In this document: positions 74 through 64,000 of the stretch, piece after piece
Layout of the letters: every line of letters begins with the position of its first letter
Numbering within the stretch: position 1 is the stretch's first letter
Assembly: GCA_034780895.1 (NCBI GenBank)
Contig: JAUZTB010000127.1
Coordinates: 19,052,769-19,116,768, forward strand
DNA length: 64,000 bases
Source of the DNA: Rhynchobatus australiae
Lineage: Eukaryota
Reading direction: 5' to 3'
Position numbers and translations under genes: made by a program
The notes under the pieces: model-generated
Told to the model about the DNA's origin: nothing
Databases searched by the model: none
Seen by the model: the letters and a program-made list of their open reading frames with translations, nothing else

Positions 74-1533
74 GGAAGACTGAAGGAGGTACTTAGGGGA
101 GAGGTAACAAAGGAGGGAAAGAGAGAAGGGAACTGAAGGTGGGAACCAGAATCAGGAAGTGTGCATATGCAGAGTCTGAGATCGTGGGGTGGAAGTAAGA
201 ACATTTGTGTGCCTGTACGTGTGAGTACATGCACGTCCACACACTGATGTGTGTTAAGTCCTTGCAGCAGAGTCTGGTCTCCAATCATCTTGGACCTCCC
301 TTCCAGAGGACATAGATCTCACTCTGTCTAGATTGTACATCAGCTATCGCACATTGGCCACCCCATGTTAAAGGAATTCCCCAACATGCATCTTCCACTC
401 TCCACAATTGGAGTTGAGCAAATCATCTTCAATCTGAGGGACTGCTTAAGAAAATATACTGCAGTTCCTCAAAATGCAATGCATGCTGTTTCTTTACTGC
501 CTTGCAATTGACTGCGCCTGCTCACAACAATGCATAGTTTTTCTAAAACAGAAAATGGACACAGCACTCAAAGAGGAAACAACATGGTGTTCTTAGGTGG
601 ACACAATATGCACAATAACCATAATATAACAATACCGAAAGGGACCATTGCAAAATGAGCTGAGATTTGGTATTGCTCACTTTACATTGAGATTGAATGA
701 AGTAATTGCGATTTTCTAAGAGATGGTGTCTTTATTTCAATTTGTCAAAGTTTGATAAGGTTGGAACAGTTTGTAAAGTTTAACTAAAAAATATAGATTT
801 CCAACACTTTCTAACATCAATTAATAGTTATAAGTTTATTGTTAAACCCTTGAACAAATTTCTGAAAAGAAATATTGCCATAAAACACTACATGTAATAA
901 AATCATTTCTCTCAGAGTCTAGTTATGGTTTATTGTAATTCATTTAAAAATGTCTTCAATCCTTTGAAACATTATGCAAATTTTGTAATAATTTGTAAAA
1001 ATAAATGTAGATATACATTTTATACATAAAATGAACATTTATTTATTAATAGAAATGCTAAAGAGAGGATATCGAACATCTTTTGGTTGTCACCCTTGCA
1101 GAGTTGCTCTTGGATAAAAGGCTGCAATACAATTTACTTTCTCATGGTAATACCAAGTGTAGATGTGTCACATAGTTGGACATTGGCTCCCAGACTATAC
1201 GTCACAGTATAGTGAAGGGTGCTTCAATCAGCCACCCTTCACTAATAGCAAGATCCTAATTTTCCACCATGGTCGTCGGGGGCACTACATACGAGTATTT
1301 GCCTTGTAGTATTGGAGATGAGGGAGGTCACTCTCCAAGCACGTGAAGAAAGCTCTTCAGCACCCAAGCGATTCCCCCTTGTACTCCCTGATGGAAGTAT
1401 ACACTAGGTAGAATCTTAGTCTTGTGTAGGAAATGGAAAGGTGCTGTCAAAAACAGTAGCAAAGAGTAAGTCACATCACAGAGGATCCAAGTATTAATTT
1501 GCTAAAAGTTACTAAACATGTATGACTGAAATA

Positions 1534-1612
1534 AAACCAGAAAATGCTGGGAAAAAATTAGCAGGTGAGGTACCATTTTTGGAGAAACAGCTAACATTTC
1601 AGGTCAATGATT
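1534..1612 (-). mobile_element. Highly decayed Penelope-like terminus
   Basis: AAACCAGAAAATGCTGG...AGCAGGT...AACATTTCAGGTCAATGA resembles the copy at 56703. Confidence 0.4.
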
Positions 1613-4980: not shown

Positions 4981-7423
4981 TTGATTTAAGGAGTGCCTGC
5001 AGATATTTCAAATTATTAATGCATAATGGATCTTGGCAGAAGCTTGTAGTCTGTGTCTTCTGTTGAAGGGCATAAGCAATTTAATAACAGGGAACTAGGT
5101 GGGGCACCTGTCAATCTTCTTAACCAGGACAATGGCAGTCACCGCTGGTGAGCAGAAGTTAAAACTTATGGCCATCAGAGAGAGTCTTTCCTTAGCCATG
5201 CAGTGCCTGCCAATACCATGAGCATAGAAAAAAACCTTGTTCAAGGTCACCAATAGTTCTAACTTAGCATTGTCAGTTTACATTGTAAGTTACTAGAATC
5301 CAATGATTTATCCAACAGAACAACTTCCATTTATGTTGTGTATTAAATTTGGTAGCACATCCCAAGATCCTTCACAGGAGAGATAAAGTGACATTAGTTC
5401 AGGTGACCAGAAGTCTGGTCATAAAGAGAAAGGAAGTGAAGTACAGAGAAGAAATTCCAAAGTTTAGGTGTGTGGCAGCAGAACATTTAGGAGATGCAAA
5501 AGGTGAGAACTGAGGAACTACAGAAATCTCAGAATTGTCAAGAAGACCTGAGAAAAGTCATGATTAATTATAAACTGGTGCCACGATTAGCAGGGCATCA
5601 GAGACTTTTGTTGCTTTATGTTCTCTGAGTTAATCCATCTGAAATATTTAGGGAGAAAAGAACAATGCTAGTCAGCAGACAATTATAGAGAGGATAATAA
5701 TCCCATTCAGCTTTCCCTACTCAGTCATCCTTTCGCATTTATCATTGAATAGAACCCTTAATTCATGCAAATGCATGGTTTTGATACTTTACTTGGTTAG
5801 AGACTGCTACATTGTCTTAGCTTCATTGCACTAAGGGAACCATACACTGATCATTGATAAGCTGTTTCCGAATTATCATTCTCTTTGCTAAACTCTCCTA
5901 CAGAAAGTTACGGAGCATCTCTGCTGCAGGACATACAACAGGCTAACTTAATATTCCATGAATTTCCTCCAGCAGTTCTGTTTCACAACCTGAACATTTT
6001 CCAAAGACTGTTTCTCTGCTTTATCTCTCACCATTCTACAACAATAAGTTGCACTTGTACGGTAGCATTGGCATAATAAAACACATGAACGTGCTTCAAA
6101 CAAGAAGCCAATCCAACAAAGGAACATTAGGACACTTAAACTAGTCTTGAGGGACATCCCATAGGAGGAAAGAGAAGTACAGGGTAGGTGAATGTTAGGG
6201 AAGGAATTTCAGAGCCTAGGGCTAAGGCTTTGGAAGGCACAACTGCCAATGTGGAACAATGAACATCAGGTAGTGACCAGAATTGAAGGAGCACAAAGCC
6301 AAGGAAATTGTAGGGATATACCACACACAGTGAGCCTTGAATTACTGCATTGAGAAAAATTAACATATTGAAATCTCGGGGAGAAAGAAAACCAATGAAC
6401 TTGTTAGCCACCTTACACTTGGATCCTTTTCCTGGACTTGCAAAAATACAGCTCTCCAAACCCAGATCTGAAATACTTCTTGTTCCAAATTGTTCTCATG
6501 GAACTGTGGTAACTGTTGTAGAGTATGGGAAGAATTATTATGTGGAAATCCAGCTAAATTGCCCTTTATCCCACATTTCCCCCACCTAGATTAGTCTAAT
6601 TCTGCACTGCTAACAATATGGAATGCCAAGGAAGTAATATCGCAATGGAGAAATCATTCATCATACATGTTTGAAACACTCCCCAAGGCTCAGTACAGTA
6701 ATCAAAGTCACTATAGCCTTTGAGTTGATAGTTAAACCATATATTGTTGAATAGGTATAAATAGGAGTTGATGTTAACGTGGTGCCTTAATTCAGTAAAG
6801 GATTCCTGTGTACAGATGGTACCCTGAACACCTAGTAATGTTAAACATTTAATGATAAGCATAACAATGATTTTAAGGGCATATATTTGTAGAAATTGTG
6901 AGGCATACTGCAATTTTTCTATTTTGACCCACTCTTCGAAAAGAAGTATTCTGCCATTGGATTAATTAGATCCAATTAAAGTATGGAGTGTACTTCCTAC
7001 TACAAAGCATAATACAGCCCACACCAACTCTGTGGTAAGTTTAACATACCTAATTGGTAGATTGTCCATTCTGGTTGGCAATGCATCAATCAACTCAGGG
7101 TGCAGACAGAAATTATGTTCGTTTAAAGCATTTAAGTCACTTCATGTTTGAAGACGTGATAAAACTGTCCCGGGCCCTGAAATTCCAGGATGTTCTCTGT
7201 GCTGCAGTCAGACGACTTATGTCACTGTTGTTATTTCACCATTGCTATTCACCAGAAGAGGGAGTTGAATCCCAGTTCCACAAACCAAACTAAATTATTT
7301 TTCACAGGAAGCTGTGTAAATTCTAGCATGATTAGAAAATAAAAAATGTAATCAGCTGCTGAGGCTGCAGGAGACCCCAGTGCAGAAGCAAAATGGCCCC
7401 AGTGAAGACTGGGGAGGCACAAC

Positions 7424-7548
7424 AGAGACTGCAAATGCTGTGATCTGGAGCAAAATACAAACTGCTGGAGGAACTCAGCAGGTCAAGCAGCATCTGTGGA
7501 ACAGAGGGATAGTTGATGTTTCCATTTGAGACCCTGTACCAGGACTGA
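7424..7548 (-). mobile_element. Penelope-like terminus, decayed hammerhead
   Basis: TGCTGGAGGAACTCAGCAGGTCAAGCAGCATCTGTGG...; minus strand CAGTCCTGGTACAGGGTCTCAAATGGAAACATCAACT. Confidence 0.7.
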
Positions 7549-9210: not shown

Positions 9211-9500
9211 TACTGCTCCGCCCAAGACTGCAAGAATCTGCAGAAAGTTGCAAATGCAGCCCAGTTCATCATGCAAACCAGTCTCCCCTACACTGACTCT
9301 GTTTACACTTCCCGCTGCCTCAGGAAAGCAGCTAACATAATCATAGACCCCTCCCTTCCCAGTCACTCTCATTACTTCTCTCTCCCATCAGTCAAAAGAT
9401 ACAAAATCTTGAGAGCCTGAATCACCAGGCTCAAGGACAGCTTCTATCCTACTGTTATTAGACTCTTAAACAGACCTCTCAAAGGCTAAATGAACTCTTA
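9211..9500 (+). mobile_element. Rex1/Babar LINE 3' fragment
   Basis: Homologous to the Rex fragments at 41600 and 63300 (CAGGCTCAAGGACAGCTTCTATCC motif). Confidence 0.8.
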
Positions 9501-12710: not shown

Positions 12711-12795
12711 CGCAACAAATTAGTCGACCAGCTTTATTATCCTGGTACTGTGAAACTGCTCACAGACTGTAGTGGGACTGACCAAGCTGGGACAC

Positions 12796-12828
12796 CTGAT
12801 GAAGGGTCTCGACCTGAAACATCAACTG
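12796..12828 (+). ncRNA. Hammerhead motif, core intact, 5' strand of stem I lost
   Basis: CTGATGA-A-GGGTCTCGACCT-GAAA-C-ATC-AACTG; the upstream CAGTC is replaced by flanking sequence. Confidence 0.5.
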
Positions 12829-12890
12829 TCATTTCCCTTCACTGATGCTGCCAGACCTGCTGAGTTCTTCCAGCTTTTTGTGTGTTACAC
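12796..12890 (+). mobile_element. Penelope-like terminus
   Basis: Reverse complement of the family at 7424/34940 (GATGCTGCCAGACCTGCTGAGTTCTTCCAGC). Confidence 0.75.
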
Positions 12891-15847: not shown

Positions 15848-16057
15848 ATGGTGGCCGCGGCGTGCGGGCGAAAGTTGGCGCGGCGCTCGAAATCCGCCGT
15901 GATCGTGGCACTCACCGTGCTGTTCGTGCAGACTCTGCTGGTGTGGAATTTTAGCAGCCTGGACGGCGAGGAGAAAGGCGGCGAGGACAAGAAGCAGAGA
16001 GCCCGGCACGTCCGAGAAGCACCCAGGAAAGGGTTCCCCTTCCCTGGCCAGGGTCTG
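15848..16057 (+). CDS. XYLT1: Xylosyltransferase 1, coding exon 1 (cytoplasmic tail, type II membrane anchor, start of stem region); rest of gene lies beyond the window
   Basis: ATG at 15848 in good Kozak context (aaaATGg). Translates [39 protein letters not shown]..., closely matching the vertebrate XYLT1 N-terminus as I recall it ([39 protein letters not shown]) and better than XYLT2. Ends after 70 codons at a phase-0 donor CTG|GTATGT. Lies in a CpG island. Confidence 0.93.
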
Positions 16058-18469: not shown

Positions 18470-18822
18470 GGACAGACAATAAGAGGCTGCAGGAACTCGG
18501 CAGGTCAGGCAGCATCCGTGGAGAAAAGCAGACGGTCAGCGTTTCAGGTCAGGACCCTTCTTCGGGACTGACCCTAAACGTTGANNNNNNNNNNNNNNNN
18601 NNNNNNNNNNNNNNNNNNNNNNNNNNNNNNNNNNNNNNNNNNNNNNNNNNNNNNNNNNNNNNNNNNNNNNNNNNNNNNNNNNNNGGACCCTTCTTCGGGA
18701 CTGACCCTAAACGTTGACCGCCTGCTTTTCTCCACGGATGCTGCCCGAACTGCTGAGTTCCTCTAGCATTCTGTTGTGTCTTTTTCCATCTAGATTCCAG
18801 CACCTGCAGTCCTTTGTTTCTC
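18470..18822. mobile_element. Penelope-like inverted terminal pair spanning an assembly gap
   Basis: Left arm GGCAGCATCCGTGGAGAAAAGCAGACGGTCAGCGTTT and right arm AAACGTTGACCGCCTGCTTTTCTCCACGGATGCTGCC are near-perfect reverse complements. Confidence 0.75.
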
Positions 18823-21800
18823 TAAAATGATGATGGCTTTTGGTCCTTGTTGGAGGGGCAAACCTGTGTTTGCCGTACGTTGATAGGTGCTTGGAGATAG
18901 AAACTGTAGATCATCATTGTGGGATGATCCTCTTTTTTTTCAGGGAGTGAGACAGGTCTGAGATCGGCATTTACGGCCAAGATAAGTTTAAAAGATATTT
19001 AGAGCTGTTATAAACCACACTCAGCGGGTTAAATCCTTCACAAATAGATTTTGTTGATGTGGCAGATGTAAACCAGCATCTACTGTAGAATTGGCAGTCG
19101 ACATTGAAAGAATTGTCCACTTGTAATGCAGATACCGAGTAAAAGTTGTCAGCAGTGTAATTGTTCTGGTAATTCATACAGTACGACTGGCTTCCAATCT
19201 AACAACAAAATACACTCAAACCACGTATACGACACAGTGGATTGTAAAAGTGTGTTTTAATAACCGGCCATTTTACTGGATAATATTCACCGGAATCTAC
19301 TTCACTAGATGCAATTTTACTTTCCTGTTCTTTTGACCTCTTATGGAGAGTAACATCCTGAGGCATAGTATAACACATGCTCTTACTGTATAAGCTAGGC
19401 GAATGTATGTTAAAAGATTCACTGACCACTGCAATAGTCCAGACAAGATCAGCTCCCTGGATAATTGTGACATTATGGAGCAAATTGTCTTTTTAGAATA
19501 ATGTGAAATCTTCAGTGATAAGTGAAATCGTCATTTGCATGACTGATGTAGAGGATGGTCTCTGACTTCAGCCTTCTAGCCAAGATGGGCGAAAACACAT
19601 ATCTGCATTCCTCCACACTGAGGTTAGCTCAAAACGTTGGGAGCTACGCTAAATAATAGCAGCAATGATAATTTTTTTAAAGAAGGTATCTTTCATGCAG
19701 TCTTTTGTTTTGCTTTGTTTTGTTGCCAAACATTAATTATTATGAATAAATCTCCAACACTAGAAAGAAAAATGAACCTTTTAATATTCTATGCACTGTT
19801 TAGTAACTCATTTGAAATAATTTTTGCGTTGTCGGCCTGAGGCAGAATGAACTGTGAAACCAACCTTTAGGTAATGTCGGATGAGCAAACGTGGAAGACG
19901 ACAGCAGGAGCTCTTGGGCTGGTTCTGCCATTCTGTCATGCTACTGACCTGCATCATAATTGACTGGATGTCATTCCTCCTCTGTTCATTACCATACAAT
20001 TACTCAACATCTAGCCCTATTGAAGACTTCCCTGTCACTTTTTATTGCTTTTAATTGCTTAATCTCAATTGCCAAGTAAAGGTCAGTGTCCTGATGAACA
20101 ATTTAACCCAGTACACTGCTGTCATTTAATTTGAGATAAAAGGATTGCAGAAGACTTTTTAATAGAATGCTCATTTTAAAATCTTACAGAATTAGTCGGC
20201 CAAAAATAGCATTTGTATAGATCTTGGAGCACCTTAAAGCATCTTTAATTCCTTGGAAGCATCTCTCTAAAAGTATTAAAAACCAGGAAACACATTTTAG
20301 TTTGCTAATAACTAACCGGAAAGATATATTTGCTTATCATAAAATAATGAAAAGGTACTCTAGGCATTGCAAGTCATCAACCTATATGTTTAATAAATCT
20401 CAATACTCTTACTGAATCACTTGTATTTTTGTTATTGATAATGTTGAAATAATAAATTGCCTCCATTGTATTGATAATTATTAGCATAACTTCTGATAGA
20501 ACTTAACTATCTTATAGTAACACAAAAGTTAATGCACATTTAATTAAGGTCACTAACTAAACTGTTAATCTTAACCAATCTGGCAATTATGCAGGTAGTC
20601 ATTAAGGAAATTTGAAAACTGATTTTGAAAGAACCCTTTGTAGATATCTTGTAAAATATTATTCTTGTGGCCACCTTGTTAAGCAAGCAAGTTTCCTCCA
20701 AATTAAGTTTTTAAACCACTGAAAGTAACTGTACAAAATTGAATTGTACAAACATGAAGATCTGATGAAAATCTAAGGCCTCTTCAATCTCATTAAATGG
20801 CTGTAACTATTGTGGTAATGTAGTAGAGAAATGTTGAGGAAACTTTTAATTCAGATGTTTAATTTTTGATTCAAATTTGGCACATGGATTGATGACACTA
20901 TGTTTGCTTCTGTATGTTTAAAATGTACCTGTGATTGGACAGGTACCTTGAGAACAGCTTCATGACAAGAATGGTGCTACCTCACAGTTCCACAGCTCAT
21001 CTTGACAATCTTGCACAGGTTCTCACAACATTCCAGTATGATTGTTGAATGGTGCATTAGCTGTGCAGCAATTAGTATTCATGCTTAAATCTACAAAAAT
21101 CAATTATGAATCGCTTCTAATCAGACCACAACTGCTATGGAATTGCTGGTATTTCTTATAACAAGTGATCTAGCACACAGCTGGTGCTGTACAGCCATAG
21201 TTCCACAGCTGGTGACCGTATTTATCTAATATGCCTGGGACCTCATTGCTGATGTATTGTATGAAAGAATCATTGGCTGTGAAAATGAGGTAACCACAGT
21301 ACATATTTTGCAGCTCTCTGCCAACCTTCAGATCAAATTAATCTGGGCTAGTTTGAGAATAATGTACTAAACTTGGCTGTGACCTTCCACACCTTGGTTT
21401 TTCAAGGAGTCATGTTTCAACAGCAAAGACTTTTATTTGTACTTGATGAATTTGTGAATGGGAGCAAGTAAACTATCCACATTGAAATCTACTTCAACCA
21501 ATGCAAATAAAAGTGTTTATCAGCATTAATACCCACCCAATCCTGACGTTCATATGTGTGCCATTTCAGAATGATTGTCTCCCAGCTGACATATCATATT
21601 TCCTCAAAGATTAACAGTGTGATGATTGAGTCCCATTGTTTTGGTCCATTCCACAAACTCTCCTCCTTTCTCATTACTTCTGCTGGCTAATGCAGTCTGT
21701 GCAAAAAGTTGCCACTGTGTTCAATTTCAATATCCAATTGTTACCAAAGCCTTTCGGCTCATTCATTATTGTCCCTGTTAGGTCACCATTTTTCACTCAC

Positions 21801-31790: not shown

Positions 31791-32494
31791 AATTAATTAA
31801 ACAGTGGACTGCAGGAAAATGATTCCTTTCCATTCTTGTATAACAAAATTGTAAAGATCAGCCTTATGTTTTATCCTGTGAGTCAGACTCAACAAAAGGT
31901 AATAAATTCGAACCACATCCGGAGATGTAGACTCATACTTAATCCCCATTGGTTAAGCACCTTGCTATGAAAGCCTGTCAGAGAATCTTTAAGCCTTTGT
32001 CCTTTTGGTGTGGTGTGTTTGATACTTAAAATGCTACTAATTGCAGAGATGAAAATAACTTCAATGGTCAGACCAATACTCTGCAAGAATCTCCAGTGTT
32101 ATGTAGAAATCCTTTTATTTATAATTTGTGACTAAGTTTGCAGCACTGCTTCCATTATTCTGCTCTAACAAAAGTATTTGAAACAAGTCTGACATTCAGT
32201 CTCCTTGAATGACACGTGTAATTTAGGATCAAATTGCATACCTTTAATCTGTGACCTCACAACCACTAGAATTAGTTGGGAATAACCTAGAACTGGAAGA
32301 GCCCAACAAAAAGAAAAAAAAACTTCAACCAGCAAAGTGTATGAGTGAGATAAACCGGCCATGACTGGCTGATTGTGAAGGAGGAAATAAATGAAGTTGA
32401 TATTCATGGGGTAAACAAAGCAGCAGGCGGGGTTATGAATGGAAGCTTAAAACTCAGCATCTTCACAGCACTGTCACTGAACACCAAGGTTCCC

Positions 32495-32670
32495 AACAAA
32501 CAATCTGCTGGAGGAACTCGGTGGGAGAAACGGAATTGTCAACGTTTCGGTTTCGATGCAGGGTATTGACCTGAAACGTCGACTGTTCCTTTCCTCCCGC
32601 AGATGCTGCTTGACCTGCTCAGTTCTTCCAGCAGATTGTTTGTTGCTCCACATTCCAGCATCTGCAGTCA
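32495..32670. mobile_element. Penelope-like inverted terminal pair flanked by a 16-bp direct repeat
   Basis: CAACAAACAATCTGCTGGAGGAACT ... AGTTCTTCCAGCAGATTGTTTGTTG; flanks CACCAAGGTTCCCAAC (32482-32497) and CACCAAGGCTCCCAAC (32669-32684). Confidence 0.8.
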
Positions 32671-33680
32671 CCAAGGCTCCCAACTCAGGCAAACAAGACC
32701 CCTGCTCCACCAAAGCCCAGCTATGACACTGCACTGCTATAATTTCCTTCAGCACAACAAAACACATCACCTTCTCCAGTCCCGAGTGCTACATACTTTC
32801 AATTATCCAAGTGTTGATGTATATACAATAGGTAAAGGAATATTCAGAAAACAAAGGTCATCAGTTATTGTTATCACAGAATAAATAACATTCATAGAAA
32901 TCAAAATCCAAAGCACCCATAAACAATCCACAGAGCCGCATAATAAAAGCTGAATTGCACTTAGTCACTGTAAATAAATGACTCTGAAGAAGCAATCTAT
33001 ACTATCGTTTGTCGTAAAACATGATTTGCACTGAATGCTACCACAGCAACACAGCTGGTAATACATTAAACACCATGCATTTCATGGGAGATTTTTATTT
33101 TTTGATCATAAACTCAGTTCTTTTCAAAGAGTAAAGGGAAAGTTTGTCTGAGCATGTCAGTATTTAGGTTGATATATTTTTGAAAATAATTTAAATACAA
33201 ATTGCACAGCAGACTTAACAAACATTTCAGTGAAATCTTTAAATAAAAGTAATTTAACTTTATGAATCATGCCAAGTTGTCCAACTGTTTTCTTTTAATT
33301 ATTGTTTATGTACTTAAAATCTAGAAGGCAAATTTTAGCAGCTCGGTGTATGCACCTGCTTTTATTGCTGCAATGAATGTGTGAAATTTTATTCATTGAC
33401 TGTTGACTAGAAATACCTAGAAGTTACAGAATGTAGTGTGTTGTATTTTAACTTGGTCATGTAATCCATTTCATTATTGTTGAGTTTTCAATTAAAGGAA
33501 ACTTGGACTGTTATTTCAGGAGAATAATGTGGCAGAATGTTCAGACACCTGGGAGCACATTTTTTTTCTGCATATTAACCAGCTGTTGTTGAAACTGCTC
33601 AATTTACATTAAATAAGAATTTAATTGAATTGAAAAGTGGGTCCCATACTCGTGGACAGGAACAAAGTTTGTTCCTCTAT

Positions 33681-34476
33681 CAGAATCAAGTTTATTATCA
33701 CTGACCTATATGACATGAAATTTGTTGTTTTGCGGCAGCAGTACAATGCAGAGATAAAATTAGTGTTCATGGGTTCATGGACCATTCAGAAATCTGATGG
33801 CAAGGGGAAGAAGCTGTTCCTGAATTGTTGAGGGTACAGTGAAAAACTTGTCTTGCATACCATTCATACAGGTCAATTCATTATGCAGTGCATCTCGAGT
33901 TAGTACAGGGTAAAACAATAACAGAACGCAGACTAAAGTGTAACAGTTACAGGCAGACAATAAGGTGCAAGGTCATAATGAGGTAGATTGTGAGGTTAAG
34001 AATCCATCTTATCATATAGGTGACCATTCAATAGTCTTATAACAGCAGGGATAGAAGCCGTCCTTGAGTCTGGTGCTACATGCTTTCAGGATTTTGTATC
34101 TTCTGCCCGATGGGAGGGAAGAAGAGAGAATGTCCGGGGTGAGAGGGGTCTTTGATTATGCTGGCTGTTTTACCAAGGCACGTCCTGGATGGTGACATTC
34201 TTCACCATCCTTCTTCGTGCCTCCTTCATAACTGCATCAATGTGTTGGGCCCAGGATAGATCCTCCAAGATGTTCATGCCCAGGAACTTGAAGCTGCTTG
34301 CCCTTTCCATTGCTGACCCCTCAATGAGGACTGATGTGTGCTCTCCCGACTTCCCCTTCCTGAAGTCCACAATTAATTCCTTGGCCTTGCTGATGTTGAG
34401 TACGAGGTTGTTGTTGTGACACCACTCAAGCAGCCAAACTATTTCACTCCTGTATGCCTCCTCGTTACCATCTGAG
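33681..34476 (-). mobile_element. Composite Rex1/Babar fragments (two subfamilies)
   Basis: ORF 34170-34370 DFRKGKSGEH...ERASSFKFLGMNILEDLSWAQHID. The tail of the 41600-type is interrupted at ~33832 by the 62880-type tail. Confidence 0.85.
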
Positions 34477-34939: not shown

Positions 34940-35133
34940 GAGAGATTCTGCAGATGCTGGAATCTGGAGCAACTCACACAAAATGCCAGAGGAACTCAGC
35001 AGGTCAGGCAGCATCCGTGGAGGGAAATAAACAGTCGATGTTTCGGGTTGAGACCCTTCATCAGGACTGGAAAGGAAGGGGGCAGAAGCCAGAATAGGAA
35101 GGTGGGGGAAGGGGGAGGAGCACAGGCTGGCAG
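34940..35133 (-). mobile_element. Penelope-like terminus (best preserved copy), truncated by gap
   Basis: CTGCAGATGCTGGAATCTGGAGCAA...GGAACTCAGCAGGTCAGGCAGCATCCGTGG...hammerhead...purine-rich UTR. Confidence 0.8.
35032..35069 (-). ncRNA. Minimal type-I hammerhead ribozyme motif in a Penelope-like terminus
   Basis: Minus strand reads CAGTC-CTGATGA-A-GGGT(CTCA)ACCC-GAAA-C-ATC-GACTG: 5-bp stem I, CUGAUGA core, 4-bp stem II, GAAA and NUH site. Stem III palindrome ACGT is mutated to ACAT. Activity not shown. Confidence 0.7.
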
Positions 35134-38100
35134 NNNNNNNNNNNNNNNNNNNNNNNNNNNNNNNNNNNNNNNNNNNNNNNNNNNNNNNNNNNNNNNNNNN
35201 NNNNNNNNNNNNNNNNNNNNNNNNNNNNNNNNNGGAGGGTTCTGTTGCATTGTCCACAAAAGCTTGGAAGAAAAAAATCTTACACTTTTTAAACTGTGAT
35301 TATATATGGGATTAATTTCACCCTTTGATTTACATTACAGTATTTAAATCATTACCAGCTGTCTGTTATTGTAATCTTCGTATGTAATTCAAATCAAAGG
35401 AATGGAAGGAAAAAGTAACACAGCTCTAGAAGCAATCATTTTCCAATCTTTGTGCCACAGTGTTTTCAACCAAAAAGGTGGCCTCAAATAAAGCAACAAG
35501 TATGGCAGAATGACAGGCCAATGCTTACTATTGATCCAGTTCCTGCTTACAGGATTGTACAGCACAACCTGGCTTGTTGAAATAGCTTTCCAGGTAGTCC
35601 CACTCCATTGGCCTTTCCATAAAACCCTGCCACATTTTCCCTTTTCAAGATCAAGTTTAAAGGTTTCCCTTGTGACACTGTATATGTGCAGCTTTTATTC
35701 AGTGGAGGTGAATTTCTGCATCATGTTAGATTTAGCACTATATGTTTAATCTTCTGTGTTTTTACTACTTGGATACATTTTCTTTTAGCTTAAAAATTTT
35801 ACCTGGCTATGGTCAAAGTCATTAAACTGGAGTAATCTTATTTTTTTTCAATATGTACACTGAAATTCAGAGTTCTGAGTCAGTATTTAGAGAACAGTTT
35901 ATTTAAACTTGGCTATTTGCACAGCTTTGGATTCTGAGATTAGATCTAATTAGTAATTGACTTTCATTAAAAGGAGTATGATGGTGATACTGTACTAACT
36001 TAGTTGGACAGAATTCATACGATATTCATCATGCTGGAAGTATTCTGGAAGCAGTTCACCTGAAATTGTGCAACAGTCCAAATCCTAACATCGAAATGCC
36101 TGAACTTCATCCATAATGAAATAAATAGTGGTGTTTGCTTTTGGAACAAATGCTGAAAAACACCCGCTGGTGTGTGATTGTGGTCATTAGTATTCAGTGC
36201 ACATGGGCTCACCAAGCAGAATCATCTTAATGGACTCTGAATGAGCCCAACTGCCAGTGATTGTTGGATGGAGAGAGGCTGCGAACACTACCCATCATGA
36301 GTTATGACGACGACTGTCTAATGCTGAAGCAGATCAGGGTCAGGAGGCAGCTTAACGCGACATCAATCAAGACCAGTAAGACAGTAGAGACCTGCTGAGC
36401 CAGGATAAAATTCCCAGAGCATGCTAGAAGGGTGGTTGAGTTAAATAACACTTTCAAGATAAAGCTTTGACTAAACTTTTCTCTGCTTTTTTTGATTGTT
36501 GAAAGCAGTGATTTAGTGCATCCTAGCAAATACTTATTTAAGACACAAGGTTTATTCTTGCCTGGATGACCTGCCTGACTACTGTGGCTCAGTTTACTTT
36601 GTTGCTGAAATTGTTTATTTTTGTGAGCCAGTCCTGGCCACTGGTCCTGAAATTCTTCATGGTTTTCCTGCCTTCTACCAATTATACCCACCATTCCACC
36701 CTCCACCCTACTGCAACTCCCCACCCTCTCCATAACTTCTATGGAGGCTCTCAAAACCCCTGTTGAAGCACCATAAACAACAACTCTGCACACAGCACAG
36801 AACTTTTATGATTCCTAATTCCCCTGCTTCTTTCTGTCATGTGTATATTTCCAGTCAGAAGGAAATTTGGCCTGGTGTATTGCTTGGATTTATACTTGTA
36901 TTTTATCAAAGCATTTTATCTATTTTTTCAAATTTCAGATTTCCTTTCATTATAAAGCATTTCCTCACCTTAAAGTATCCTCCAAGTTTCCTAAAGATAA
37001 TTGGTCTACACTGCCAGTTAGTCTCATGTAAATGCTGCCAGGAAGGGGGACCTTATTTTGCCAGCAGTTATTGGCTGAGATATTACGGTTGACTATCAGC
37101 TCTCTAAGTTGGGAAGTGAAACAAATTCAGCACCATTACTATCCAGTTACTGGGAAAAGGTGACCAATTGTTTCCTGCTGAAGTTCATTTGGGGAATAAA
37201 GAAAACTTGGAGGAACGGGGCTTTAAATGTTAATCTCCAGATGTGTTAAAGATTAGGCTGATTTCAGTTTATGATCCTTGCTTATTAAAAGCTTTTGAGT
37301 TGCCTCAAATAGTTCATGAACCAGGAAGGCATGGACGGCAGTCAGTCTCCTTCATTAGATTGTAAATGCATGAGTCTGGGTCTCTTCCCGAGTTGCCCAG
37401 CAATTCTAACTAACTTGCCTTTGATAAACCCAGCAGGACCTCTGGCTACTGAGAGCAGAGTTTTTATAGAAGCTCAGTAACTTTCATGGTTATTTTTAAA
37501 GTACAGACTTGCAGGTTGAATTTCACAATTTCATCTAATGGACTTCGAACTCCTAACTTCTGGATTATTAATTCAGTGCTTCAACCATGAGGTTACCATA
37601 CTTGATTCAGTTTTTCAGTTTCTCCTGCACTCCTGTGTTAATTTTGAAGGTGGCTAAATGTATTTAGTTTAGCTGTTCAGTTGTAAGAGCCAAGCGTCAA
37701 TATAAGGCATTCCTTCCACTGCATTTTCATTCCCTGTCCATAGTTACTCGGCAGTGAGCTTTTTACAAACAGTAGCTCTATGTCTGCAGGCTGTTAGTAT
37801 TTGTATATTCAATGTTAATTGACACGGTTAGGTGCTTTGAGGTTCTATTATATTTAACAAAATTTTGAAAGGAAACCTACGAGTGTGCTCAACTCCTGAT
37901 ACTGTTGGGGATCTGAAAGCTTGGTAATACTTTAAAGCCTTTCGATGTGTAGGAATGATGCTTGACAAGGGCTAATGGTGGGAGAGGTGATTTATTGATC
38001 TATGATTTGCCATGCCGCTGATGGCACTTCTGCTTTGGTGATCCTCACCTGAGGGCGCTACTTAAAAGGCAACCACTCGTACCAACGTAGTCAGAGGTGA

Positions 38101-41524: not shown

Positions 41525-42290
41525 GGCATTCCACCCTCTGAGTCATTGGTTTAAATTCCACTTTGGAAACTTGAGTGCAAAAATCTTACCTGATGAATTA
41601 GAATCAGGTTTATTATCACTGATGCATGTCGTGAAATTTGTTGTTTTGTGGCAGCAGTACAGTGCAAGACATTAAAAATTACTGTAAGTTACAAAAATAA
41701 ATAAGTTTGTCCAAAAGAAGAATAATGAAGTAGTGTTCATGGACTGTTCAGAAATCTGATGGTATAGGGGAAGAAGCTGTTCCTAAAATGTTGAGTGTGG
41801 GTCTTCAGGCTCCTGTACCTCCTCCCTGATGGTAGTAATGAGAAGAGGGCATGTCCTGGGTGGTGAGGGTCCTTAATGATGGATGCTGCCTTCTTAAGGC
41901 ACTGCCTCTTGAAGATGCCTTCGATGGTAGGGAGGGTTGTGCCCATGATGGAGCTGGCTGAGTCTACAACCCTCTGCAGCCTCTTTTGATCGTGTATATT
42001 GGAGCTTCCATACCAGGCTGTGATGCAACCAGGCAAGATGTTCAGTGTAGTACTGAGTGAATGTTGAACTGCTGGGTGTGCTGATTTATGGATGAGACGT
42101 TAAACCAAGATTCTAGCTGCTCACTCAAGTGGATGTAAAAACTCCAGTGGCACTGTATCAAAGAAGTGAGGTTCCCTGATGTCCTGATCACAATTTATCC
42201 TTTAATCAGTATCATCATCACATTTCTGCTTATGGGAGCTTAGTGTGTTCAAATTAGCTGTGGTATTTGTCAAATTTCTGCAGTTCAACT
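41525..42290 (+). mobile_element. Deu-domain SINE interrupted by a Rex1 insertion
   Basis: Head (CTCTGAGTCA...ACTTGAGTGCAAAAATC) before 41597; the core GGATGAGACGTTAAACC...AGTGGATGTAAAA...GGCACT resumes after 42040. Confidence 0.75.
41597..42040 (-). mobile_element. Rex1/Babar LINE 3' fragment
   Basis: ORF GCITAWYGSS...LQRVV...IIKDPHHPGHALFSLLPSGRRYRSLKT...FRNSFFP. Confidence 0.9.
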
Positions 42291-44813: not shown

Positions 44814-45170
44814 TAAGAGACTGCAGATGCTGGAATTTGGAGCAAGACACAAGATGCTGGAGGACCTCAGTGGGTCAAGCAGTACCTATGGAGGGAAATA
44901 GACAGTCAACAGTTTGGGTTGCATCCCTCCATCTGGACTGAGAGGGGAGATGGGTGGAGTAAGAGCTACCAAATGATAGATGAGGAGGGGTGATAGGCAG
45001 ATGGAGGAGGGGAGAGTGGAAATAGTGCCAGAAGCTGGGAGGTGATGAATGTCAAAGGGCTGAAGATGATAAAATCTGACAGGAGAGCAAGTACAGAATG
45101 GAATCCAGATGGGTGGGAACAGTGGGGGAGGGGGACCAGTGGGAGGGATGTGTGGGTGATGGGCAGATAG
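44814..45170 (-). mobile_element. Penelope-like terminus, decayed
   Basis: GAGACTGCAGATGCTGGAATTTGGAGCAA...; hammerhead core degenerate (CAGATGG, CAAA). Confidence 0.7.
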
Positions 45171-45629: not shown

Positions 45630-46065
45630 TAATTTTTTGGGATCTTGGCATCCCTGGCATGGCCAGCATTTATTGCCCATCTTAAATTGTCCTGTGGTGA
45701 TGGGCCTCCCTCTTGAATCACTGCAGTCCTTCTGGAGAAGGTGCTACCACAGTACTGTTGAGTCTGGAGTTCCAGGGTTTAGATCTAGAGACAAGAAAGG
45801 AACAGCAATATATTTCCAAAAGACTAGAAGTAATGGGACTGCAGAGCTTTGATCAGATTTGTTAGTTTTGGGATAGTTTAGCTCTGTCTATTGCATGCTG
45901 ATTTTACTGTTGAGCACTTGCATGTGGCTTTACTGTGTTGGTACCTCCAAAGGAAGGCTGGTCCTTCTGCACTCTGCATTGAGCCAGAGTTGAATCCCTG
46001 GCTTGATGGTGACATTCGAGTGGGGGATATGCCAGGCCAGGATTGTGGTGGAATACATTGCTGTT
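45630..46065 (-). mobile_element. CR1-group LINE 3' fragment (same family as 48945-49676)
   Basis: GGCCAGCATTTATTGCCCATC...CAGCAATATATTTCCAA is the reverse complement of 49480-49660. Confidence 0.7.
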
Positions 46066-46199
46066 GATACATATGTATATGTGTGTATGTATACATACAC
46101 ATATGTGTATATATGATAGGTATATATAATTAGATATATGGTTATATAGAACCCATTTATTACCTGGGGTGGGCTGGCACAACTGGCTCGCTGAAGCAA

Positions 46200-47106: not shown

Positions 47107-47692
47107 AGAATTAGAATCCAGTTTATTATCATGGTCTTGTATGTTGTGAAATTTGTTGTTGCAGCAGTACAGTGCAAAAATATAAAATTACTAAAAATCA
47201 CAAAATAATGCAAAAAAAAAAGGGAATAATGAGGTAGTGTTCATGGATTCATGGGCCGTTCAGAAATCTGATGACTGAGGGGAAGAAGCTGTTCCTGAAT
47301 CATTCTTTGTGGGTCTTCAAGCTCCTGTACCACTTCCCCTGATGATAGTAACGTGAAGAGGGCATGTCCTTAATAATGGATGCTGCCGCCTTGAAACACT
47401 GCCCCTTGAAGATGTCCTCGCTGGTGGGGAAGGCTGTGATAGAGCTGGCTGAGTCTACAACCCTCTCCAGCCTCTTGTGATCCTGCACATTGGAGCTTCC
47501 ATACCAGCCTGTGATGCAACCAGTCAGAATGCTCTCCACCGTACATCTATAGAAATTTGTAAGAGTCTTTGATGACAGACCAAATCTCCTCAAACTTTTA
47601 ATGAAGTAGAGCTGCCGGCGTGACTACTTTGAGATTACATCAATGTGTTGGGCCCAGGACAGATCCTTGGGGAGGTTGACGTTCAGAAACTT
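47107..47692 (-). mobile_element. Rex1/Babar LINE 3' fragment
   Basis: ORF RRFGLSSKTLTNFYRCTVESILTGCITGWYG... Confidence 0.9.
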
Positions 47693-55800: not shown

Positions 55801-56702
55801 TGCAAGCAGACTCCACGAATTAAGGGTTAAACTAAAATATTGTGGTGTCACACCTGGGGGGGAGGGGAGATGAAATCATAGGGGCATTAAAATGTATGCT
55901 TTTCTTTGTCTTTGAATAGATTTGTTTATTTATGAATAAATAATGGAAAGGGGGCTTTGCTTGATGGCCAAATGTTTTTCATATTGGGCGAAGTTTATTC
56001 TATTTCCCCCGATTGGTGAAAAGACCATATGCTGTGCGATTGGATATGTAGTGTTACCAATGGCAAGTTGCAGGGTGACAGGTAGTGATTGGAGGTAGGT
56101 CACTTGATGAAATCTGTTGAATATTGTCCAATATTGGGTTTTTAAAGATTGAGTACTTTATGTTAGAGCAATCTGGTAACAGTAGGAGTGTCATGCACCT
56201 GGATAGATGGCACTCTCTCAAAGTGGCTTCCATCCATATTACTGTTTGAGTTTCAGCAACTACTGATCACAGCAGATTACCTCCAAGAACCATATTAAAC
56301 TGGGAAGATGAACATGTATGACAGCTCTGTCACACAGCTTAGTATGGTTGACAGGAGTGTTAAGGCCCAGGAAGCTTAGTCAATTAGTAAGCAATCCATT
56401 TTTCTACACAACTCTGTTTCTTGGGGAGCCCCAGCTGACTGGGCAGCTTGAAGACTCGGCAGGTCTATTAGTTCTCTGCAGAGGCACATTGTTTCCAGCC
56501 TGTGCATCTCGTCAATTTNNNNNNNNNNNNNNNNNNNNNNNNNNNNNNNNCCACCTGCAGCATTCTGAAATAGGGCTCCTGTTATAGCACAAGATTTGAT
56601 TTAATTGATCCTTGCATTATTTCTAAATGGTTAATATTTAAAGAATATTGCAACATAGTCACACCACTATATAATCTTGTTGCAGTTCTAGTTTGCTAGA
56701 TA

Positions 56703-56797
56703 TAAACAGAAAATGCTGGAAATGCACAAAGGGACAGGCAACATCTACAGAGAGGGAAAAGGAGTTAACATTTTAGGTTGATGAACTTTCATCAGAT
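56703..56797 (-). mobile_element. Older Penelope-like terminus
   Basis: Minus strand CTGATGAAAGTTCATCAACCTAAAATGTTAACTC: CUGAUGA kept, GAAA changed to AAAA. Confidence 0.55.
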
Positions 56798-57319: not shown

Positions 57320-57948
57320 TTGTTCTCGCTTTACAATATTTTTATTAGATCCATGAAAAAAATAGAGTACGTGCATCAAAAAAGAGTCAAAATACTACTG
57401 AATACATTGTGTTAAAAATCATACTTAGGATCACAATACTCTAAATTAATAATCACATTTAATAGTTAAAGGAAAAATTGGANNNNNNNNNNNNNNNNNN
57501 NNNNNNNNNNNNNNNNNNNNNNNNNNNNNNNNNNNNNNNNNNNNNNNNNNNNNNNNNNNNNNNNNNNNNNNNNNNNNNNNNNTTAATAATCACATGTAAT
57601 AGTTAAAGGAAAAATTGGAATATTTTTAAAAAAAAATCTACTCCCACTAACAAAACCAAAGCTGTTTGATTCTTTTTAAAAAAACAAGGAAAAACCCTTG
57701 AAATGTAACAATGTCAGCCAATATCTGTATTTTAGTCACCAAATCAAAGATTTTGAAAATAATTCAAAGAAGGTCCCCACAGGGTTTGAAAGTCCAAGTT
57801 AGATTCAAAAACTGGACAGCGAATCTTCTCTAGATTCAAGTATGACATAACATCCCTTAACCATTGAGCATGAGTAGGCAGAGTAATTTCCTCCATTTAA
57901 GCAACTCAGCTCTCCTGGCTATAAGAGAAATAAAAGCCAGAATGTGTT
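57320..57948 (-). mobile_element. L1-clade LINE 3' end
   Basis: Minus-strand translation with frameshifts: HILAFISLIARRA.LLKW...PTHAQWLRDVMSYLNLEKIR...FQTLWGP, the fish-type L1 ORF2 C-terminus. Confidence 0.8.
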
Positions 57949-62879: not shown

Positions 62880-64000
62880 GGTATTGGTTTATTGCTGTCA
62901 CTTGCATCGAGGTACAGTGAAAAACTTGTCTTGCATACCATTTGTACAGATCAATTCATTACACGGTGCATTGAGGTAGCACGGTAAAAAACAATAACAG
63001 AATAAGTGTCACAGCTACAGGGAAGTGCATTGCAAGTAGACAATAANNNNNNNNNNNNNNNNNNNNNNNNNNNNNNNNNNNNNNNNNNNNNNNNNNNNNN
63101 NNNNNNNNNNNNNNNNNNNNNNNNNNNNNNNNNNNNNNNNNNNNNNGGTAAAGGTTTATTATTGTCACTTGTACCGAGGTACAGTGAAAAACTTGCCTTG
63201 CACACCGATCGTACAGATCAATTCATGTGCATTGAGGTTGTACAGGGTAAAAACAATAACAAAATACAGATTAAAGTTTCACAGCTGCGGGGGAGTGCAG
63301 TGCAGGTAGACAATAAGCTGCAAGGTAAACAAGGTAGATCGTGAGGTCAGAGTCCATCTCATCATGTAAGGGAACCATTCAATAGTCTTAACACCGTGGG
63401 ATAGAAGCTGTCCTTGAGCCTGGTGGTATCTGCCCTCAGGCTCTTGTATCTTCTGCCTGATAAGAGAGAAGGGAAAATGACCTGGATGGGTGGGGTCTTT
63501 GATAATGCTGGCTGCTTCTCCAAGCAGCGAGGGGTATAGACAGTCCATGGAGGGGAGGCTATTGGGCTGTGCCCACACTCTGCAGTCCTGGGCAGAGCAT
63601 TTGTCATACCAAGCCATGATGCATCCAGATAGGATGCTTTCTCTAGTGCCTTGATTTAAAAATTGATGAGTGTCAAAGGGGATGTACCAAATTTCTTCAG
63701 CCTCCTGAGGAAGTAGAGGTGCTGATGAGCATTCTTGGCCGTGACGTCTCCGTGGTTGGACCAGGACAGGCTACTGGTGATGTTCACTCCTAGGAACTTG
63801 AAGCTCTCAACCCTCTCTGCCTCAGCACCATTGATGTAGAGAGGTGCATGTACACGGACCCATTTTCCTGAAGTCAATAACCAGCTTTTTTGATTTGCTG
63901 ACATTAAGGGAACAGTTGTTGTTATTGACACCATGTCACTAAGCTCTCTATTTCCTTCCTGTAATCTGACTCATCATTATTTGAGATAGTCTACTACAGT
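62880..64000 (-). mobile_element. Rex1/Babar LINE (two tandem 3' tails plus ORF remnant), runs off window
   Basis: ORFs ERVESFKFLGVNITSSLSWSNH...HLYFLRRLKKFG and SGRRYKSLRADTTRLKDSFYP. Confidence 0.9.

Follow-up and report, generated by a model that had tools for sequence, protein, structure and literature searches.

The hammerhead copy at 35032..35069 and its surroundings

The window, that is, the whole stretch of 64,000 nucleotides of Rhynchobatus australiae DNA analysed here, contains coding exon 1 of XYLT1 at 15848..16057 on the plus strand (99% identity to a manta ray protein) and a minimal type-I hammerhead at 35032..35069 on the minus strand, located in the pLTR end of a Penelope-like element (PLE). 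A CpG island surrounds the exon, and several CCAAT-like boxes precede it. Since no other XYLT1 exon occurs within the 64-kb window, the hammerhead appears to lie antisense in intron 1 of the gene. A Pfam scan of 145 of the 249 ORFs of the window returned no host gene, and no remnant of the PLE ORF is present within the window.

The 38-mer of the original prediction is found letter for letter at 35069-35032 of the minus strand, and its computed fold in isolation has the stem I of 5 bp and the stem II of 4 bp of the proposed type-I hammerhead (z −2.9; 2 of 200 shuffles equally stable). Stem I is formed by 35069-35065 and 35036-35032, and is followed by the core CUGAUGA (35064-35058), the extra A after A9 (35057), stem II (35056-35053/35048-35045) and the GAAA box (35044-35041); the predicted cut site lies between 35037 and 35036, all on the minus strand. 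With CUGAUGA, GAAA and AUC, both boxes and the NUH triplet of a minimal hammerhead (min-HHR) are in place, as are stems I and II, the extra base after A9 and the G10.1–C11.1 pair. The palindromic positions 15.1–16.1, which would build stem III in a dimer, are lost: the minimal stem III described earlier is the remnant ACAU (35041-35038, minus strand) of an ACGT palindrome, in which G16.2 has become A at 35039 and the middle is unable to self-pair. The minimum-energy form of the isolated motif also pairs GAUG of the core with the bases preceding the cut, giving an inactive rod, and a genomic copy with an intact pattern is predicted to fold into the same rod.

On the 3' side of the hammerhead, a conserved block with a tail of ~30 nt (34941..35031, minus strand) corresponds to the 5' UTR of the ORF in tandem units, while sequence matches identify 35070..35132 (minus strand) as the pyrimidine-rich 3' UTR of the element, which ends at an assembly gap. 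This gap of 100 N (35134-35233) conceals the 5' end of the copy. An Inr-like motif spans 35065..35070 (minus strand), and its A at 35068 is position −32 relative to the cut, the putative transcription start of the family to judge from a pile-up of 5' ends and an extra G, which are described below. Contigs from one sequencing run labelled with another organism cover the two flanks along with 23 letters of tail, against a bridging standard of 31 letters, which is only a hint that the insertion is shared; the 100-N gap is not bridged by these contigs.

Relative to the majority of its subfamily, A1, the copy is 94.8% identical, and the 10 differences over 192 nt, which include G>A at 35049 and at 35039, each a CpG site, represent an ordinary neutral load. 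It is the best preserved copy in the window, with every feature present except the palindrome; the nearest copies on the same strand are 10 and 16 kb off and have damaged cores. Because the ACGT palindrome has been lost by CpG decay and a same-strand partner is missing, the copy is probably inert.

All seven further loci named in the original prediction were recovered by BLAST and an iterated nhmmer profile, giving 10 hits at 8 loci in total, and the reversed-sequence control for the profile search of the window gave 0 hits. The bare core pattern has 10 matches in the window versus 5.5 expected (5 of 100 shuffles), which is barely above chance; the case rests on family homology. In the suggested check against Rfam, no hammerhead model reached E ≤ 10 with the window, with the focal copy or with a pattern-intact copy. 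The further copies include a minimal A1 copy starting at −29 (12795..12885, plus strand), which has an intact core and ACAT and lacks the 5' strand of stem I; an A2-type copy with a U4A core and several core matches, the 3' UTR of which extends upstream (44815..44949, minus strand); a decayed minimal copy from −34 resembling C2/A2 (7419..7548, minus strand); and, from the old subfamily E, a copy from −30 (56697..56796, minus strand) and a fragment without the 5' core (1529..1610, minus strand). Two loci are head-to-head inverted pairs. The pair at 32494..32666 belongs to subfamily C1 with an A9C core and joins 32494-32550 on the minus strand to 32555-32666 on the plus strand. Its copy at 32573 had been put forward as showing the ancestral palindrome, and GAAACGTC, with ACGT, is indeed present; this copy begins only at G5, with C at position 9. 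The pair at 18476..18825, of subfamily D, is joined inside the hammerhead (18476-18571 on the minus and 18701-18825 on the plus strand) and is interrupted at its centre by a gap of 100 N, on either side of which the same 33 bp occur (18552-18717). A similar duplicated edge occurs at 57446-57619, and both are likely scaffolding or assembly artefacts. No tandem hammerhead array occurs within the window.

Two further repeats of the window deserve mention. A second dispersed family (33679-34264, 41595-42099, 47108-47667, 62880-63970 and 9280-9470) includes three ORF pieces resembling the 3' ends of LINE RTs, two of them with weak ALKBH8_N Pfam matches, and it probably consists of L2/CR1-type remnants. 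An AT-rich imperfect hairpin at 46060-46132 is a simple repeat with weak matches to miRNA families in Rfam, far below threshold.

The parent element, its abundance and its subfamilies

The anticipated link between the hammerhead and an RT+GIY-YIG ORF is borne out by 9 of 30 RT-anchored loci, in which RT, EN and hammerhead lie in one orientation. The best 29 other genomic matches (~91% identity over 192 nt) have the pyrimidine-rich tract upstream, preceded by the GIY-YIG C-terminus and, in L006, also by the RT, and at four loci (L259, L248, L263 and L245) the hammerhead tail runs on into the N-terminus of the ORF, which aligns in tblastn with the start of intact homologues. These homologues contain RVT_1 and often also GIY-YIG (117 hits). 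The order of the unit is hammerhead, tail/5' UTR, ORF, pyrimidine-rich 3' UTR, hammerhead and tail, and its length of ~3.5 kb is pieced together from offsets in different copies. The ORF comprises an N-terminal domain, the RT, a CX4CxxC linker and GIY-YIG. As in EN+ PLEs, a single ORF combines a telomerase-like RT with a C-terminal GIY-YIG, for which the Pfam match by itself has an E-value of only 0.082, all ORF-bearing copies examined being broken, and the pLTR arises from a partial tandem, with an inverted 5' copy and a tail of 30-40 bp. In L006 and L063, RT and EN are separated by the CX4CxxC motif, which the homologues P0004 and P0026 have at the equivalent place, in agreement with the CX2-5CxxC linker of Neptune; by this linker, a mark common to Neptune and Nematis, the element is provisionally assigned to the Neptune type. 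A regex count of the Cys motif in 113 of 117 homologues was set aside, as the pattern also matches EN itself. At L259:1370-1560, tandem 48-nt repeats lengthen a Pro/Ser/Thr-rich linker of the ORF, with other expansions at the same site in L240 and L261. A short reading frame directly upstream of a PLE fragment (L017:870-1000) resembles thymidylate kinase by its motif.

The abundance of the family was assessed in 120 ten-kb regions of large scaffolds, chosen by round coordinates and totalling 1.2 Mb, a sample that is not a formal random draw. The very high copy number proposed from the window is upheld by 226 hits, with 0 in the control, which corresponds to 4.2×10^5 fragments genome-wide (bootstrap range 3.6-4.9×10^5); 56 of the 226 hits form 28 head-to-head pairs joined within 30 nt, with the junction inside the hammerhead. 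Exact-pattern searches of the genome found 578 strictly intact A/D-type motifs that keep the ACGT palindrome, 1,629 motifs when positions 4, 9 and 17 are relaxed and 79 motifs of the old E-type pattern, each with a backwards control of 0.

Score and length filters retain 187 of the 226 hits, which fall into subfamilies E (82), C1 (37), A2 (25), C2 (16), D (15) and A1 (12). The core is canonical in A1, D and E, of which A1 and D are the youngest subfamilies, and not in A2 (U4A) and C1/C2 (A9C): of the 37 C1/C2 copies scored, 36 have C at position 9, and of the 14 A2 copies scored, 11 have A at position 4. Subfamilies in which a core change is fixed make up 78 of the 187 copies. To judge from mutagenesis of other hammerheads, A9C and U4A would be expected to impair cleavage. 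Changes of the hammerhead core in general drastically lower activity (passages of PMC3088659). The literature search found no report of A9C/U4A lineages; Lunse et al. 2017 may already hold such core variants. The subfamily majorities differ at N7 and H17 and their loops vary freely, while all six keep the ACGT palindrome (allowing for CpG decay), G5, A6, G8, G12, A13 and A14 and both stems. In subfamily E, the C-G pair at the foot of stem I is replaced by U-A, a compensatory change, and G-C at 10.1–11.1 of stem II by G-U or A-U. With 10 of 80 copies excluded because of long deletions, the remaining 70 give a covariation score of 0.185 versus 0.150 (1 of 500 shuffles), which reflects one or two lineage changes, mainly that of E, and few independent events, in an alignment whose E rows are misregistered in stem II.

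The proposal that copies were inactivated mainly by CpG decay of the palindrome stands in part. It is the commonest palindrome lesion, affecting 52 of the 83 copies that span the full motif, among which ACGT is found in 10, ACAT in 31 and ATGT in 21. It is not the whole reason why most copies are dead, because 104 of 187 do not span the full motif and 78 of 187 descend from core-changed masters; a single copy among the 187 is intact on every criterion. Half of the products of CpG decay are AUGU, which is still able to self-pair through G-U wobbles. Change rates are 33-52% at CpG sites and 7-17% at other sites; decay after insertion is about neutral, with CpG loss 3-5-fold faster. No excess conservation of the core after insertion was found, non-CpG changes amounting to 67/633 and 58/534 in the boxes versus 835/6721 in the tail block.

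Copy ends and the form of the template

The 3' ends of the family fall into two groups ~30 nt apart, one at +64..+72 and the other at +100..+105 relative to the cut, and the 5' ends cluster at −36..−6 with an edge at −33..−31. Among the 168 uncensored 5' ends of the 187 sampled copies, 41 lie beyond −40, 53 at −40..−26, 55 at −25..−6, 9 at −5..+5 and 10 further in; the modes are −32 and −30, and exactly one end falls on the cut, while a simulation of uniform truncation is flat. The pile-up persists once family E is removed (31 of 93 ends at −40..−26 and 26 of 93 at −25..−6). It is weaker in a second set, taken from the flanks of targeted loci, in which 17 of 53 ends lie beyond −40, 14 at −40..−26, 9 at −25..−6, 8 at −5..+5 and 5 further in, with none on the cut. 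A peak at the cut site is absent from both sets, with 1 of 221 mapped ends. At the 31 of 60 pattern-intact loci that were checked, 7 of 23 uncensored ends lie at −33..−31 and none at −42..−34. Genome-wide, 741 matches begin at −32 versus 20 at the cut with foreign upstream bases, a comparison of unequal sensitivity.

The Inr consensus is YYA+1NWYY, and in every subfamily the A at −32 stands in an Inr-like context. Upstream of −32, the 30 inspected loci show unrelated flank or an inverted partner. Where the template C is absent before A(−32), G takes its place in 64 of 100 A1-type copies among the matches listed (first 100 of 741) and in 42 of 100 D-type copies among those listed (first 100 of 222), with 26% expected in both tallies, which were counted by hand. 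G also precedes A(−32) in 7 of 11 copies of the sample; of the inspected loci, 8 of the 11 with an inverted partner and 7 of the 14 that are truly solo have it. In full-length L1 insertions, an extra G at the 5' junction marks the cap (passages of PMC11702581). The control position −27 is likewise G-rich (G in 26 versus C in 4 of 100), a result confounded by A2 and fold-back junctions, and thus part of the extra G may stem from fold-back or from the junction; in the C family, for which a design flaw let in the template bases, the test gave 12 G versus 10 A. A YAG at −33..−31 was considered as a splice acceptor and rejected, there being no common upstream exon among the copies with these 5' ends. 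Of the 12 minimal solo copies, 5 are flanked by TSDs of 9-13 bp, against none of 132 mismatched pairs, which identifies these copies as insertions rather than deletion remnants.

The most probable reading, to which we assign a probability of roughly 0.7, is that the focal copy is a decayed pLTR hammerhead of a Neptune-type PLE whose family likely spread mainly via capped, uncut transcripts starting at stem I. Short copies likely derive from capped uncut RNA because the 5' ends pile up at −32 and not at the cut; a cut template would begin at G1.1, a start rarely seen. Hammerhead activity in the family is not supported, and the copy ends point to uncut templates. A scheme of Pol II initiation, internal priming and copy length set by the priming site is somewhat favoured. 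In this scheme, Pol II would start at A(−32), inside the first stem of the hammerhead, as read from DNA fossils, and the RT+EN protein would nick DNA and use +68 or +101 as internal priming sites. If the 5' copy of this signal is used, only 100-135 nt remain to the capped end, which would yield the mass of tiny insertions, whereas priming on the 3' copy after read-through would yield long copies such as the focal one. Both nicked strands would be extended and joined at the palindromic stems to give head-to-head pairs, numerous junctions of which use palindromic microhomology in stems I/II. The monomer would remain an inactive rod, cleavage would need an ACGU dimer and/or the element protein, and cleavage would be dispensable enough for the A9C and U4A lineages to amplify. 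Long copies could equally derive from cut-and-ligated circles, which leave no sequence trace, and through such circles cleavage could keep a place in the autonomous cycle.

It is doubtful that cleavage is obligatory. In this alternative, which uses the circle model of Cervera and de la Pena, a read-through RNA is cut by its pair of hammerheads acting as a dimer, the unit is circularised and reverse-transcribed round the junction, tiny copies are by-products and A9C or U4A transcripts are cut with protein help. The palindrome, the core residues and the stems kept in six majorities despite varying loops, and the canonical cores of the youngest subfamilies A1 and D, fit this proposal, as does the protein-assisted hammerhead of PAc described in passages of PMC11167929. 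The rarity of ends at the cut in the mapped sets and, with its unequal sensitivity, in the genome-wide matches argues against it, as do the core-changed lineages, and a cut linear RNA would part the ORF from the downstream priming site. It is likewise unlikely that the 5' pile-up arises because RT stalls or switches template where the hammerhead is folded, or because an antisense template primes itself (an idea put forward in PMC3846280), with the motif acting as a structural or recombination signal. The spread of 5' ends over −36..−6 with a shoulder at stem II, the microhomology at the head-to-head junctions and an extra G that is not confined to −33 would suit such an origin. RT, however, reaches the fold from its 3' base and would be expected to stall there, and stalling sits poorly with the sharp upstream edge at −33..−31 with its mode at −32, the Inr-like context in every subfamily and the G in true solo copies. 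That the focal copy was co-opted to cleave a host RNA, either XYLT1 pre-mRNA or an antisense transcript, is highly improbable, since this best preserved copy of the window, although located inside the gene, is antisense to XYLT1, has an ACAU unable to form a self-paired stem III, lies 10 and 16 kb from core-damaged same-strand copies and carries an ordinary neutral load.

Relation to known systems

Hammerheads in the pLTRs of PLEs are a known class, and the identity given in the original prediction (type I, PLE pLTR, extra A after A9 and, in the family, a palindromic stem III) agrees with it. As described in passages of the min-HHR survey (PMC4209133), these ribozymes are of type I with a stem I of 4-5 bp, an extra base between 9 and 10.1, G10.1–C11.1, a palindromic 15.2–16.2 and no loop 3, and they occur in pLTRs of RT+GIY-YIG elements and in dispersed truncated copies, with reports from fish Neptune/Poseidon/Xena, coelacanth and Xenopus. 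Stem II has 4 bp in the ray copies versus 7-8 bp in Schistosoma, and the abundant A9C/U4A lineages of the ray are absent from the survey's description in these passages. A shark or ray entry was not found in the survey passages or its supplement file 2, and a literature search, with bioRxiv supplements outside its scope, returned neither 5'-end mapping of such copies nor shark/ray PLE hammerheads.

A close parallel is PAc, a Poseidon element of Anolis carolinensis (Frangieh et al. 2024, PMC11167929), in which, according to passages of that study, the hammerhead is closely followed by two priming sites, ~30 nt apart, which delimit the tail and which the two groups of 3' ends in the ray match. 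Mutation of the HHR leaves insertion normal, the RNA serves predominantly in its uncut form, as suggested for the ray family, the tail results from internal priming, which was shown in vitro for the PAc protein, and both DNA strands are extended, which fits the head-to-head pairs of the ray. The ray element differs in its Cys linker, which is missing from Poseidon, and in its ORF start, which lies ~140 nt past the cut and not inside the hammerhead. With the Neptune clade, as treated in passages of Craig et al. 2021 (PMC8557442), it shares the C-terminal GIY-YIG, the CX2-5CxxC linker and the DKG motif, as well as 5'-truncation, partial tandems, the inverted 5' copy, the 30-40 bp tail and the HHR in the pLTR; since Nematis shares the Cys linker, the placement in Neptune is by linker and not by tree. 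The same source terms the role of PLE hammerheads unclear. The non-coding non-LTR retrozymes, type-I hammerhead repeats derived from PLE pLTRs with one chondrichthyan case (passages of bioRxiv 10.64898/2026.07.22.740005), form tandem arrays with a hammerhead per unit, whereas the ray copies are solo or inverted, and a second intact motif within 1.5 kb was found at 0 of 31 pattern-intact loci. Two direct pairs of pattern-intact D-type motifs, at G000:C1:2828230/2828306 (76 bp) and C2:515704/516075 (371 bp), are candidates for dimer cleavage.

As the motif itself is already known in PLEs, the potential value of the family lies in a record of ~4×10^5 fragments. Together with the extra G and the A9C/U4A lineages, the map of 5' ends provides a genome-scale, testable case for uncut capped RNA as the usual template, of specialist interest as fossil evidence that cutting is usually skipped, and the natural A9C/U4A variants are usable for cleavage and promoter assays. 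More tentatively, we propose that ray transcripts may begin, at their capped 5' end, with the hammerhead, which would also act as an internal promoter and constitute, with the priming site 100-135 nt downstream, a self-contained Pol II mini-retroposon; the fossil insertions in their hundreds of thousands and the entire lineages with crippled catalysis would then indicate that cutting is dispensable in vivo and that the fold is kept for transcription or protein binding. A precedent is Penelope of D. virilis (Schostak et al. 2008, PMC2377424), for which passages of the study describe a TATA-less start in the pLTR with an Inr and the downstream element RGACGTGY; a 75-bp intron separates start and hammerhead in D. 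virilis, whereas the putative ray start coincides with stem I. The ACGT palindrome of the ray family (−5..−2) is located at +28..+31 from this start, as is the downstream promoter element of D. virilis Penelope, and it may serve both roles.
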